Assembly: GCA_964610735.1 (NCBI GenBank) | Contig: CAZSYH010000002.1 | Span: 12,933 to 76,932, forward strand | Direction of reading: 5' to 3' | Source of the DNA: an uncultured Syntrophaceae bacterium | GTDB lineage: Bacteria; Desulfobacterota; Syntrophia; Syntrophales; UBA2210 | DNA length: 64,000 nt | Shown here: positions 12,431-22,229 of the stretch, piece by piece | Layout of the letters: each line of letters starts with the position of its first letter | Numbering within the stretch: position 1 is the stretch's first letter | Program-made: the position numbers and the translations under genes | Notes under the pieces: generated by a model | The model's database searches: none | Told to the model about the DNA's origin: nothing | The model's input: the letters and a program-made list of their open reading frames with translations, nothing else

Positions 12431-14386
12431 ATGATTTCACTGCAAAACATATCCAAACAGTACAGCGGAAAATATCTCTTCAGAGGTCTTTCTCTCCATA
12501 TAGAAGACGGAAACAGGATTGCCTTCGTGGGTCGGAACGGAACAGGTAAATCCACGCTGATGAAGATAATCCTGGGAGAAATCGAAGCGGATTCGGGAAA
12601 AATTATCCAATCCAGATTTAACAGCGTAGGTTATCTCCCCCAGGACAGCGTGTATCACACGGGCCGAACTCTTTTTGAAGAAGCGGCAACCGCCTTTGAC
12701 GACCTGAACCGCCTCCACAAAAGAATCAGAGAGATAGGCGACGAAATCTCGACCATAATTTCTCCGCAAGGGGATAACTCTCCGAAAGTACAGGGCCTTA
12801 TTGATGAGATGGGGCAGGCGCAGAGCATCCTGGAGCACCGGGAGGGCTACAACATAGAGATAAGGGTGAAGCAGATCCTTTCAGGCCTCGGATTTAATGA
12901 AGAGGACATGTCCCGAATGACAGAGGAGTTCAGCGGTGGCTGGCAGATGAGAATAGCCCTTGCCAAGCTGCTCCTCAGGGAACCGACCATCCTGCTGCTT
13001 GACGAACCCACCAATCACCTCGATATGGAGTCACTGGAGTGGATTGAAGGATATCTTAAGTCGTACAGGGGTTCTATTGTGCTGGTATCTCACGATAGCC
13101 GCTTTCTTGACAATCTCGTCGAGAGGGTGATCGAAATATCCAGGGGAGAGGCGACTGAATACGCCGGCAATTATTCATCCTACCTGACTCAAAAAGCCCA
13201 GCGCCTCGAGATGCTGCAGTCCTCACTCAGAAACCGGCAGCGCGTGATTGACAGTAATACACATTTTATAGAGCGATTCCGGTATAAAAGCACCAAGGCA
13301 AAACAGGTCCAGAGCCGTATCAGGATGCTCGAAAAGATGGGGCATATCGAGATAGATAAAGAGGAAAGTTCCATATTTTTCGATTTTCCGGAACCGCCGC
13401 GTGCCGGCAGGGTGGTAATGGAGATAGACGCCCTTACAAAGTCCTATGGTAATAATATGGTATTGGGCGAAATATCCTTCATCATTGAACGCGGAGACAA
13501 AGTCGCCCTTCTCGGGGTCAATGGTTCCGGCAAATCCACTCTCGCGCGTATTATCGCCGATGTTGACACCTTCCAGCGCGGTTTTAGAAAACCGGGTCAC
13601 AATACTGTTATCTCTTATTATGCCCAGAACATAGTGGAAGGGCTGGACCCGGACAAGACAGCCTTGCAGACACTTGACGCGGTCGCTCCCCTCAAATCTC
13701 CCGGTGAGTTGAGAACTCTTCTCGGCTGTTTCCTCTTTAAGGATGATGATGTATTTAAACCGGTTTCCGTCCTGTCAGGAGGCGAAAAGAGCCGGCTTGC
13801 CCTCGCCAAAATGATTCTGAAGCCCGCGAATTTATTGATAATGGACGAACCGACAAATCACCTCGACGCGCAGTCGAAAGCCATTCTCCAGCGCAGTCTC
13901 AAAAGATTTTCGGGGGCATATGTAATTGTGTCTCACGACAGGGATTTTCTCGCGCCGCTTATAAACAAGGTCGCCGTACTGACGGACAACGGTCTTAGAA
14001 TATATCATGGGAATGTCGATGATTATCTGGACAAATATCGTAGGGATAAAGAAAATGCTGACACCAAAAAAGACCTTCCGGAAAACAGAATCCCGTTAGA
14101 TGTTAAAAAGAACCAGAAAAGAGTGGCGGCTGAGACAAGACAGCAACGGTACAAAAAACTGAAGCCTCTGAAGGACGCGCAGGAGAAAATTGAAAGAGAA
14201 ATAGCCGCTTATGAGAAGAAAAAACTGGAGATTGAAACCTCTTTCTCAGACCAGAACACCTATAAAAACGATGTTTTAATCCAATCTCTCAATATTGAAT
14301 ACTCCCAGATCACCTCCCTGCTCGATTCTTTTTACGATAAATGGACGGCAACGGAAGAAAAGATAGGGAAGATTACAGACGATTAA
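12431..14386 (+). CDS. ABC-F family ATPase (two ABC domains, no TM domain)
   Basis: Two Walker A motifs (GRNGTGKST, GVNGSGKST), two LSGG signatures (FSGGWQMR, LSGGEKSR), and a C-terminal coiled-coil tail. Confidence 0.9.
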   Translation: MISLQNISKQYSGKYLFRGLSLHIEDGNRIAFVGRNGTGKSTLMKIILGEIEADSGKIIQSRFNSVGYLPQDSVYHTGRTLFEEAATAFDDLNRLHKRIREIGDEISTIISPQGDNSPKVQGLIDEMGQAQSILEHREGYNIEIRVKQILSGLGFNEEDMSRMTEEFSGGWQMRIALAKLLLREPTILLLDEPTNHLDMESLEWIEGYLKSYRGSIVLVSHDSRFLDNLVERVIEISRGEATEYAGNYSSYLTQKAQRLEMLQSSLRNRQRVIDSNTHFIERFRYKSTKAKQVQSRIRMLEKMGHIEIDKEESSIFFDFPEPPRAGRVVMEIDALTKSYGNNMVLGEISFIIERGDKVALLGVNGSGKSTLARIIADVDTFQRGFRKPGHNTVISYYAQNIVEGLDPDKTALQTLDAVAPLKSPGELRTLLGCFLFKDDDVFKPVSVLSGGEKSRLALAKMILKPANLLIMDEPTNHLDAQSKAILQRSLKRFSGAYVIVSHDRDFLAPLINKVAVLTDNGLRIYHGNVDDYLDKYRRDKENADTKKDLPENRIPLDVKKNQKRVAAETRQQRYKKLKPLKDAQEKIEREIAAYEKKKLEIETSFSDQNTYKNDVLIQSLNIEYSQITSLLDSFYDKWTATEEKIGKITDD

Positions 14387-19755: not shown

Positions 19756-20727
19756 TTACAGATATCTCTCGTCTTTCCCCAGATAATTTACTACATAATC
19801 CGAGACAGCGTCTTCAAGCGAGGATGTGTGCACGGGGCAACCAACCGACAGGAGTTTGTCCATTTTTGCTTCGGTAAAGTACTGATACTGCCGCCTGATC
19901 GACTCTGGCATCTCTATGTATTCAATCCTGGGTTCCTTGCCCATCGCGGCAAAGACTGCTTTTGTCAGGTCATTCCACGTTCTGGCACGACCTGTGCCAA
20001 GATTGAATATCCCTGCAACATCTCTGTTTTCAAGAAACCACCAGATCACTTCCGCGCAATCCTTCACATAAATAAAATCTCTTTTTTGCTCGCCGTCTCG
20101 GAAATCAGGTCTGTGGGATTTGAAAAGCCTCACCTTTCCCGTTTCACGAATCTGTCTAAAAGATTTGTGAATAACGCTTCTCATGTCCCCCTTATGATAT
20201 TCATTCGGCCCGAAGACATTGAAAAACTTTATCCCCACAGTCTTCTCTTCCAGCCGCTTCCTCAGTACCCAAAGATCGAACAGCTGCTTGGAATAACCGT
20301 ACATATTTATGGGACGAAGTCCGGCGCTTACGCCATCATCATCGGAAAACCCCACGGAGCCGTCTCCATATGTTGCCGCGCTGCTCGCATAGATAAAGTG
20401 GATATTTTTTTCCACGGCCCACTCTGCAAGCCGGGCAGTGTAGTGGTAGTTGTTCTCCACAAGGTAATCCGCATCTCTTTCCGTAGTTGAAGAACACGCG
20501 CCCATGTGGACAATAGCCTCAACCTCGAATGGCACCTCATCATCAAGAACCAGCTCAAGAAAATCGTCTTTATCCAGATAATCCACAAACCTGCTGTTGA
20601 CCAGGTTCTTCCACTTTTCGGATACTCCGAGGCTGTCAACAACGACAATATCATCAAACCCATGTGTATTCAGCTTCCATACAACTGCGCTACCTATAAA
20701 TCCTGCTCCTCCGGTCACTACAATCAT
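19756..20727 (-). CDS. hldD: ADP-L-glycero-D-manno-heptose 6-epimerase
   Basis: Collinear with E. coli HldD as I recall it: MIVVTGGAGFIGS, HMGACSSTTE, YASSAATYG, YGYSK, FNVFGPNEYHKG, IFNLGTGRA. Confidence 0.9.
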   Translation of the reverse strand: MIVVTGGAGFIGSAVVWKLNTHGFDDIVVVDSLGVSEKWKNLVNSRFVDYLDKDDFLELVLDDEVPFEVEAIVHMGACSSTTERDADYLVENNYHYTARLAEWAVEKNIHFIYASSAATYGDGSVGFSDDDGVSAGLRPINMYGYSKQLFDLWVLRKRLEEKTVGIKFFNVFGPNEYHKGDMRSVIHKSFRQIRETGKVRLFKSHRPDFRDGEQKRDFIYVKDCAEVIWWFLENRDVAGIFNLGTGRARTWNDLTKAVFAAMGKEPRIEYIEMPESIRRQYQYFTEAKMDKLLSVGCPVHTSSLEDAVSDYVVNYLGKDERYL

Positions 20728-20736
20728 CTGGATCTC

Positions 20737-21248
20737 CTATAATATCGGCAGATATCTCTCCAATTCATACTTTGACACGTGTCTCATGTACAGACTTCTT
20801 TCGACTTTTTTGTTCTCAACAAATTTATTAAAGGTATGTTCGCCCAGGGCTTTTTTATAGCCGAGCTGTTTTCCCCTCCTAGGAGGCTGTCCGAGAACTC
20901 GAATATTTGTCGTTTTGGGAAATTAAGGCGCAATAATATCAATTGTTTACAAGTGTAAGTTTCACAAAAAGCTATTCTCGGACAGCCTCCTATGGAATAA
21001 TGGCAAAGATTGCCGGGTCCGGCATGGCTATCATATCGTTCTCTTCAATCCTAGTAAATCCCTCAATTGACGTCCATCAAATCCCATGCCCTCGGTCATG
21101 CCTACCTCAAGCTCAAGGGGACGGCCGGCACAAACTCTTAAGCATCCCAAGAACATCGGTAAACCAGAACTGGACAAACTTCGCATCTTTATCCCCGACA
21201 TTCTTTAAAACATCTTGTTTCGTCGATCTGATCCGAGCTTCTCTTCAT
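20737..21248 (-). pseudogene. glnA: Glutamine synthetase (glnA) remnant: N-terminal ~85 codons and C-terminal ~45 codons only, with frameshifts
   Basis: Minus strand 21248..20993 reads ..KQDVLKNVGDKDAKFVQFWFTDVLGMLKS / ELEVGMTEGMGFDG / SIEGFTRIEENDMIAMPDPAIFAIIP across at least three frame changes (GS beta-grasp N-domain). Minus strand 20873..20737 reads KQLGYKKALGEHTFNKFVENKKVERSLYMRHVSKYELERYLPIL-stop (GS C-terminus). The catalytic middle is absent. Confidence 0.75.
20880..20992. repeat. 113-bp segment bounded by perfect 18-bp terminal inverted repeats (MITE-like element or deletion scar)
   Basis: TAGGAGGCTGTCCGAGAA at 20880-20897 and its exact reverse complement at 20975-20992, around a 77-bp AT-rich interior. 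The arms start where GS homology stops on each side. Confidence 0.6.
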
Positions 21249-21342
21249 TGCTTTAATTTAAAAGGGTAACCTAAGTTCAAGACAAGGTAATGTCAAGTTT
21301 TTTATATCTTGCGAATAGTTGTCGCAGTAGCCGATTTCTCGC

Positions 21343-22083
21343 TTATTTGGTTTTTCCTCTCCCATACAAATCAACCTGATGACATATACCACGGATTATT
21401 TTCACATCCCTGGCAAACAGTCTGGTCCTCGACAAAAAGCGCCTCACATTTGTCATCCAGTAATCAGGATTCTGAGGTTTTATAAAATTTATCCGCAAAA
21501 ACATCTCCCTCAAATGGTCGTACATTGCCTCAGTCTCTGCCGAAGCAGCCAGCTTCGGGGTAAAAGCGGAGGTACCCCCAACGCGTGCGGTAAAGATTTC
21601 ATAACAAATGATCATTACCGCATGCGAAAGATTGAGTGATTTCAGGCCTTCTGACGTGGGAATCTTTACCAGTACATCACAATATTTAAGATCGCTATTG
21701 GTAAGTCCTCTGTCTTCAGGACCAAAAACTAACGCTACCCTGTTGTTCTGAGAGAGATCAACGATATCTTCCGCCATTTTCTCCGGATATATCATTGACC
21801 TTTTAAGGCTCGTATTTCCTGATCTCCCGGTCGTCCCGACTATATGGTTAAACGGGGCAAGCGCAAGGTCCAGCCTGTCAAAATATTTGATTTTTTCCAC
21901 GATATCCAAGGCAAAGTGTGTTGCCCGCTGTTCAATCTTTTCTCTATCGGCATTCAGGGGATTTACAACGATGATGTTGCTTATTCCCATATTTTTAGCG
22001 CACCGGGCAACCGCCCCTATATTACCCGGATGTTTCGGCCCGTTAAGCACTATTGCCAGATTCTCCATCCTTGCTTTTTCCAA
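21343..22083 (-). CDS. trmJ: SpoU/TrmH-family RNA 2'-O-methyltransferase (TrmJ-like)
   Basis: VLNGPKHPGNIGAVARCAKNMG, LVFGPEDRGLTN and SLNLSHAV motifs; 246 aa with a TrmJ-like C-terminal extension. Confidence 0.8.
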   Translation of the reverse strand: MEKARMENLAIVLNGPKHPGNIGAVARCAKNMGISNIIVVNPLNADREKIEQRATHFALDIVEKIKYFDRLDLALAPFNHIVGTTGRSGNTSLKRSMIYPEKMAEDIVDLSQNNRVALVFGPEDRGLTNSDLKYCDVLVKIPTSEGLKSLNLSHAVMIICYEIFTARVGGTSAFTPKLAASAETEAMYDHLREMFLRINFIKPQNPDYWMTNVRRFLSRTRLFARDVKIIRGICHQVDLYGRGKTK

Positions 22084-22229
22084 TCTATGCCCCCTGTCGA
22101 AGTTTATGAGTCTGTTGATCTATGAGTTTGTTGTTGCATAAAAAATGCTCCTGTTTTAACATTCACATCTACTGGCATATTATATCATAAACTACTGGAG
22201 TCTGCCACGACGGGTTATCCTTCAATTCT

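Follow-up and report, generated by a model that had tools for sequence, protein, structure and literature searches.

A trmJ-linked glutamine synthetase pseudogene with an IS1182-type MITE at its deletion junction, probably retained as the promoter-bearing leader of hldD

Multiple type I glutamine synthetase (GSI) paralogues are common in bacteria, and deletion formation by insertion sequences is classical for IS1, IS10, and IS903. The target signature of IS630 elements is, classically, a TA duplication at CTAG. For the IS1182 family, published members have a 4-bp repeat, as reported for ISPse1 (PMC3281130) and the ISMac2 MITE (PMC3852290), and IS1182-derived MITEs of 160 and 169 bp are known as ISMac2 derivatives in Methanosarcina acetivorans (PMC3852290).

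Here, we describe a locus that can be set beside each of these systems. It lies in a stretch of 64,000 nucleotides (the window; C2:12933-76932) from an uncultured Syntrophaceae bacterium, placed in the Syntrophales by its closest relatives, whose assembly comprises 2.3 Mb in 155 contigs, with 48% GC. As in the differential loss of duplicated glnA genes, there are two GSI paralogues, ~66% identical, of which most species of the genus have one; the difference is that the window lineage has been caught in mid-decay, with the pseudogene still recognizable, and that sister species have lost the same paralogue by different deletions. As in adjacent deletions by IS1, IS10, and IS903 and in recombination between two IS copies, a deletion endpoint lies exactly at the end of an element still in place, although here the mechanism is read back from the end state alone. 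The element belongs to a family that resembles the ISMac2 MITEs in being small (~100 to 180 bp), non-coding, and multi-copy, with IS1182-matching terminal repeats and probably a short target duplication; it differs in its termini (GGAGGCTGTCCGAGAA), its bacterial hosts, and its CTAG-like insertion sites, and its exact 23-mer end is common to Desulfobacterota, Nitrosomonas, Methylococcales, and Endozoicomonas. Both the pseudogene and the MITE are of known kinds, and what we report is known biology that leaves the current understanding of glutamine synthetase and of transposition unaltered.

Open reading frames and family profiles placed trmJ and hldD on the minus strand, 615 bp apart. The interval between them holds a redundant glutamine synthetase pseudogene (paralogue B, or glnA-B) with an IS1182-type MITE at its deletion junction, and we consider it probable that this is retained as a promoter-bearing leader of hldD. 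The features of the locus are as follows.

19756-20727, minus strand: hldD, ADP-glyceromanno-heptose 6-epimerase, the downstream gene, with a GGAG that overlaps the region of the remnant's stop (TIGR02197 equivalog, 411.8 bits against a cut-off of 274.6; linked to the remnant by an RNA contig)
20737-20879, minus strand: glutamine synthetase C-terminal remnant, codons 399-445 and the TAG stop, one nucleotide deleted (82% DNA identity to the closest relative, L005; Gln-synt_C positions 310-344, E 5.6e-4; 34 of 39 residues as in the L005 protein)
20880-20992, no strand assigned: MITE of an IS1182-type family, with a 77-bp interior of 31% GC between 16-bp terminal repeats GGAGGCTGTCCGAGAA at 20882-20897 and 20975-20990, and TA beside each repeat (copies in relatives; same ends on an 1852-bp IS)
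20993-21236, minus strand: what is left of the N terminus of the trmJ-linked type I glutamine synthetase gene, codons 1-81, with the start codon lost, three indels, and in-frame stops (86% DNA identity to the intact L005 gene, up to 20992; Gln-synt_N, E 6e-18 and 2.8e-11)
21256-21308, minus strand: promoter-like conserved block from what was once a glnA-hldD unit, with TTGACA at 21296-21291 and TAGGTT at 21273-21268 separated by 17 nt (92% identity to L006, 81% to L008; upstream of intact glnA in L005)
21343-22083, minus strand: trmJ-like SpoU-class RNA 2'-O-methyltransferase, the upstream neighbor (PF00588, E 2.6e-29; TIGR00050 TrmJ/YjtD, 192 bits against a cut-off of 167)

A first-pass annotation of this DNA, made from its letters alone, had recognized glutamine synthetase (GS) peptides in the trmJ-hldD interval, and three-frame translation of the minus strand recovered them (DVLKNVGDKDAKFVQFWFTDVLGMLKS, LELEVGMTEGMGFDG, SIEGFTRIEENDMIAMPDPAIFAIIP, and KKALGEHTFNKFVENKKVERSLYMRHVSKYELERYLPIL-stop) in alternating frames. 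Formal alignment gave the same result, with tblastn E values of 4e-20 and 2e-15 when the genome's own intact GlnA was used as the query. The Gln-synt_N profile matched the stitched N-terminal pieces over positions 2-66 of its 82 positions (E 6e-18) and, in a whole-genome scan in which the remnant was read through four stops, over positions 2-71 (E 2.8e-11). The C-terminal piece covers only positions 310-344 of the 344 in Gln-synt_C, and a complete catalytic domain is absent. Alignment to the intact orthologue in L005 placed three indels (+1, +1, and -1) in the N-terminal region, in line with the earlier count of at least three frame changes, and one in the C-terminal part, and it showed that the original start codon has been replaced; the ATG at 21248-21246, which had been described as out of frame, opens a different frame (MKRSSDQIDETRCFKECRG, then a stop). 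The GlnA remnant has no uninterrupted frame, with its start codon lost, four indels, and four stops in the read-through frame. By these features, the trmJ-hldD interval holds the decayed gene of a second type I glutamine synthetase, the one linked to trmJ (paralogue B), and the remnant is to be classed as a pseudogene and not as a member enzyme of TIGR00653.

The same alignment refined several distances. The catalytic middle is missing, as had been noted, but the loss amounts to ~316 codons (948 nt) and not ~350. The GS stop lies 9 nt, and not 10 nt, before the hldD ATG, and DNA homology on the C-terminal side resumes directly outside the left terminal repeat of the element rather than ~6 nt beyond it. 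On the N-terminal side, homology does stop at the right repeat, where the 86% DNA identity to L005 ends at 20992. The open reading frame at 20943-21269 on the plus strand had been called the antisense shadow of the remnant, a reasonable reading, since it has no family match and runs antisense to recognizable GS codons. For annotation, the appropriate labels for the interval are a glnA pseudogene and a mobile element, and not small open reading frames.

A comparison of the trmJ-hldD interval among relatives had been proposed in the first-pass annotation, and the closest relative that we recovered (L005; amino acid identity of 89% for hldD, 90% for trmJ, and 96% for the FAA hydrolase) has the order trmJ, glnA, hldD, FAA hydrolase with an intact glnA. 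This glnA is an uninterrupted type I gene of 445 codons that scores 532 bits against TIGR00653. The minus strand of the window aligns with L005 in two blocks, from 21400 down to 20992 (86% identity) and from 20886 down to 20701 (82% identity), and ~948 nt of L005 (codons 82-398) are without a counterpart between them. At the 107 readable codons, the residue is the same as in L005 in 95 and the same as in the genome's own GlnA on contig C15 in 70, which makes the remnant the orthologue of the trmJ-linked gene and not a copy of the C15 gene. We also found a dN/dS of 0.087 for the remnant against L005, compared with 0.14 for hldD and 0.20 for trmJ; the value for the remnant was computed over hand-chosen readable pieces, which biases it downward somewhat. 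This ratio points to purifying selection on the gene for most of the time since the split from L005 and to a death that is recent on that scale.

The intact glnA that had been sought elsewhere in the genome is the GSI on contig C15 (paralogue A). A GSIII-like gene is present on contig C1 of the same assembly, and the catalytic core of paralogue B was found nowhere else in the assembly. Paralogues A (the C15 type) and B (the trmJ-linked type) are about 65 to 66% identical. Across the 14 species of the genus, B is intact in 7, of which only G243 has A too, and 6 species, including that of the window, have A only; the L005 genome has the trmJ-linked B copy only. The two GSI paralogues are thus almost mutually exclusive across the genus. 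One species (G249) has a gutted A, in which codons 1-84 run out of frame into codons 353-444 (locus L126, G249:C1:18600-21800, at about 1287-1807) with no MITE at the site; the fusion was apparently made across a GGCGGG microhomology, and the G249 assembly, which is 87% complete, yielded no other GS.

The trmJ-hldD locus of three sister species has also lost glnA-B to different extents. In L006, the promoter block and about 60 codons at the end of the gene remain, with the N terminus absent, L008 keeps the promoter block alone, and L007 has nothing recognizable left. Since an N terminus survives in the window but not in L006, and codons ~384-398 survive in L006 but not in the window, the deletions in these two lineages are independent, and the comparison indicates that the trmJ-linked GS copy was lost in the genus through at least two independent deletions. 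Sister species in this way display intact, half-deleted, and fully deleted states of the same gene.

The segment that stands in place of the missing codons had been described as perfect 18-bp inverted repeats around an AT-rich interior, and we found the repeats at 20880-20897 and 20975-20992 on either side of the 77-bp interior. Its size is 109 bp with 16-bp repeats, or 113 bp with 18-bp repeats when the flanking TA is counted. The element has no coding capacity, in that the open reading frames overlapping the interval are without a family match. As RNA, it is predicted to form a 19-pair stem (-43.8 kcal/mol, z -6.1), and a scan of 20600-21450 returned no Rfam match at E values up to 1. A search of the genome for other copies of the 18-bp repeat or the 113-bp unit, which had been recommended, showed that the element is single copy in this assembly. 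Also absent from the assembly is an intact IS1182 transposase; the only IS1182-type trace is a ~57-amino-acid fragment with 60% identity (G000:C3:19947-20115), which is presumably a decayed IS copy. We rejected a template-switch model in which the filler is an inverted copy of glnA, as the interior, when aligned locally to L005 in both orientations, scored 16 to 17, below a shuffled mean of 19.8, and the repeat is a conserved transposon end in many genomes.

Used as a BLAST query on 339 genomes from the order, the element returned two copies in G227 that are 89% identical over the full length, full-length relatives at ~70% identity in four other genomes, and many inverted pairs of the terminal 18 to 27 nt spaced 105 to 182 bp apart. 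The 17 paired copies that we retrieved are 101 to 178 bp long and have the 16-bp terminus GGAGGCTGTCCGAGAA, mostly with cTA...TAg flanks. Several copies are only tens of bases away from a contig end, which is expected of repeats, since these break assemblies. With one mismatch or fewer allowed, hits to the terminal 16-mer came from 73 of the 339 genomes, representing 33 of the 72 genera of the order, with up to 27 ends per genome, and a reversed control pattern gave 0 to 2 hits per genome. Over a wider range of taxa, the exact 23-mer formed by CTAG, the end, and TAGC is carried by more than 120 contigs, those of Desulfobacterota, Nitrosomonas, Methylococcales, and Endozoicomonas among them, where these ends bound MITEs of 68 to 390 bp and elements of insertion-sequence size (1.4 to 1.6 kb). 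A MITE/IS1182 family with highly conserved ends is widespread in uncultivated anaerobes, nitrifiers, and methanotrophs, and it fragments their metagenome assemblies.

Among the members of this family, one in G034 (L116) has two identical 16-bp ends 1852 bp apart, with CTA and TAG flanks, and encodes a 506-amino-acid protein between them. This protein is an IS1182-family transposase (NF033551 equivalog, 404 bits against a cut-off of 270) with DDE_Tnp_1_6, DUF772, and DDE_Tnp_1 domains; it belongs to the partner element and not to the non-coding copy in the window, which has 20 nt in common with the right end of the L116 IS. Judged by these termini, the 113-bp filler is a MITE of the kind mobilized by an IS1182-family transposase. 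The C-TA-[element]-TA-G flanks of the family are like those of IS630/Tc1-mariner MITEs, and we considered an IS630-type MITE on this account; we rejected it because the partner transposase is of the IS1182 type and not of the IS630/Tc1-mariner type. The claim of the first-pass annotation that a small non-autonomous element is associated with the deletion was borne out, in that a MITE sharing IS1182-family termini sits where ~948 bp are missing relative to the orthologue. Its second suggestion, that the 113 bp are an excision scar, the footprint of a larger element that has since departed, draws on the position of the element at the deletion. However, the element is complete, both of its termini being present and the same as in full family members, it is of a size seen among the copies in the order (101 to 178 bp), and it matches the G227 copies over its whole length, so that we regard a scar as scarcely credible.

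Searches of the literature with the terminal-repeat string gave irrelevant primer matches only, and no paper with this terminus was found; the MITE family appears to be undescribed under the terminus GGAGGCTGTCCGAGAA, yet it is an ordinary member of its class. Three solo ends (L112 to L114, in G248:C13, G226:C102, and G311:C2) match the right end of the full IS, and two of them run off contig ends. The one in G248:C13, for which no transposase or partner end was found within 2 kb, is probably a truncated copy.

We also compared filled and empty insertion sites. For one sibling copy, in G247, the window's genome has an empty orthologous site (C9, ~13239-13247), and the difference between the two sites is the element plus 2 bp at ATAG; a second comparison, of L106 with contig C5 of the window's genome, offered no usable site in a rearranged region. 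Because the preferred site is palindromic, duplication of TA (with a 16-bp repeat) and duplication of CTAG (with a 15-bp repeat) look the same there. A 4-bp duplication is favored by copies L108 (CTAA/CTAA) and L110 (CGAG/CGAG), and several other copies fit a TA duplication with fewer mismatches. The window copy has TA/TA flanks, or ATAG and CTAG on the 4-bp model, and it has no empty site for comparison since its insertion site is the deletion junction.

An inverted-repeat segment in a metagenome-derived genome could be a chimeric join or fold-back introduced by the assembler, a concern raised here by the 155 contigs of the source assembly and by the contigs of some runs that break at the terminal repeat. 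The trmJ-hldD stretch is, however, present in many lake-water metagenome runs. In one independent run (X8), a single 1023-nt Logan contig spans 20450-21472, including both junctions, with zero differences. In X1, X2, and X5, one contig ends and the next begins inside the left terminal repeat, with overlaps that are consistent; other copies compete at this repeat, and other contigs with both repeats but with different interiors and flanks show that the same samples contain other family members. The element is also covered by an RNA contig from another run and has close relatives in other genomes, and no joint of an empty or intact allele was seen in the metagenome contigs. The structure is real, and an assembly artefact is extremely unlikely.

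Both ends of the element coincide with both ends of the deletion. The junctions read ATTCCA-TA-[MITE]-TA-GGAGGGG, and the native sequences in relatives with an intact gene read ATTCC(A/C)TGG... and ...(C/A)TCCAGGA(A/G)G, with CCA-TG-G and CC-A-GGA as the forms in L005. We infer the following order of events. The MITE would have inserted into glnA-B, an insertion tolerated because paralogue A on C15, 66% identical, supplies the enzyme. Next, the neighboring gene body, ~948 bp with nearly the whole catalytic domain, would have been lost in a deletion anchored on the MITE. Three routes could have led to this loss: recombination between two equally oriented MITE copies, an adjacent deletion made by the transposase, or slippage where the MITE's 19-pair hairpin has its base. 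Small indels and loss of the start codon would have come after the deletion or earlier. That the element caused the deletion is a reading we favor with moderate confidence. A MITE inside an otherwise intact glnA-B, the intermediate of the first step, was found in no relative.

Alternatively, an ordinary illegitimate deletion could have removed codons 82-398, with a later chance insertion of the MITE into the TA of the junction. Joining the native CCAT of the N-terminal side to the AGGAGG of the C-terminal side would give CCATAGGAGG, which needs no base change relative to L005 or other relatives and has a TA/ATAG target inside it; the MITE-less junction of the ~948-bp deletion would then, on this rather unlikely account, have read ...ATTCCATAGGAGGGG... 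On the 4-bp model, the window flanks ATAG and CTAG differ by one base, as do those of several decayed copies, and the GS genes of L006 and G249 show that internal or 5' deletions occur without a MITE. Against this, the only MITE copy in the genome would have had to hit the exact dinucleotide of a 948-bp deletion, a large coincidence if the two events were unrelated, and we consider a deletion that preceded the element unlikely, although it retains appreciable weight.

There are also short resemblances between the element and the sequence at the breakpoints. The best match to the terminal repeat in all of glnA-B (12 of 16, at position 1182-1197 of the L005 gene) lies at the C-terminal breakpoint, an 8/8-nt match to the terminal repeat (GGCTGTCC) is found at the N-terminal breakpoint in G242 and G241, and the native flank TAGGAGG is a repeat of the first 7 nt of the element (window 20880-20900 and 20975-20995). 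We rejected repeat-like flanks as a habit of the family, as the 145 copy ends that we analyzed were no more repeat-like than control positions (Mann-Whitney P of 0.75). The match at the C-terminal breakpoint is accordingly a single coincidence, since the flanks of the 145 copy ends show no such tendency.

The arrangement in L005 suggests what the deletion has spared. In that genome, 9 nt separate the glnA stop from the hldD start, a GGAG overlaps the stop region, and glnA and hldD look like one unit. The 53-nt block at 21308-21256, with its perfect TTGACA, 17-nt spacer, and TAGGTT, precedes the intact glnA in L005 and is conserved at 92% in L006 and 81% in L008, from both of which glnA is gone; from this pattern, we infer that the block functions as a promoter. 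The consensus scanner made no call on the block because the second hexamer, a putative -10, matches only three of six positions. The promoter scan returned a single promoter-like site (21058-21030), which is within chance, and a terminator scan of the trmJ-hldD interval returned none. The putative glnA promoter and the ribosome-binding site overlapping the glnA stop would still be needed by hldD, and the last 47 codons of glnA survive. We propose that the remnant and the MITE now form the 5' leader of the hldD transcript because hldD depends on the old promoter and on the ribosome-binding site at the glnA stop. The locus would, in evolutionary terms, be a snapshot of a redundant paralogue being dismantled while the promoter and ribosome-binding region for the downstream gene are spared.

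RNA contigs bear on this proposal. One (X13) covers 20659-21244, which takes in the hldD 5' end, both GS remnants, and the complete MITE between them, and it ends ~20 nt downstream of the putative -10. Two further RNA contigs extend upstream into trmJ. Co-transcription of hldD with the MITE and the remnant is likely rather than certain because the RNA contigs are strandless and metatranscriptomes may contain DNA. The earlier suggestion that the remnant may supply the promoter or 5' region of hldD is in this way indirectly supported, by the TTGACA block kept in relatives without glnA and by an RNA contig that connects hldD, across the MITE, with the N-terminal remnant.

A stronger version of this proposal is that the leader has been domesticated, with the remnant and the MITE hairpin under selection as regulators of hldD, for example through RNA processing or stability, and not merely tolerated. 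Co-transcription of the MITE with hldD in the RNA contig, the 19-pair stem with its z of -6.1, and the last 47 to 60 codons that the window and L006 both keep upstream of hldD would fit such a role. However, hldD is expressed in L007 and L008 without a remnant or MITE, L005 is without the MITE, the element occurs only once at this locus, and the stem has no Rfam family match, which together make selection for regulation improbable. We give similarly little credence to the broader idea that the MITE hairpin was co-opted to tune an LPS-heptose epimerase, that the MITE family is a recurrent arbiter of which paralogue survives, and that a pseudo-end was possibly used by the transposase. The reading that we prefer is the simpler one given above, a promoter-bearing leader left by a redundant gene.

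Two minor observations were made in the course of this analysis. An RNA contig from X10 has 8 unmatched letters (TATCATAG) just before window position 20873, a few bases outside the MITE, and these are probably an assembly-graph artefact at the repeat. Upstream of the interval, the genes switch strand at window positions 22084-22229, between trmJ and rsmG, with parA nearby.
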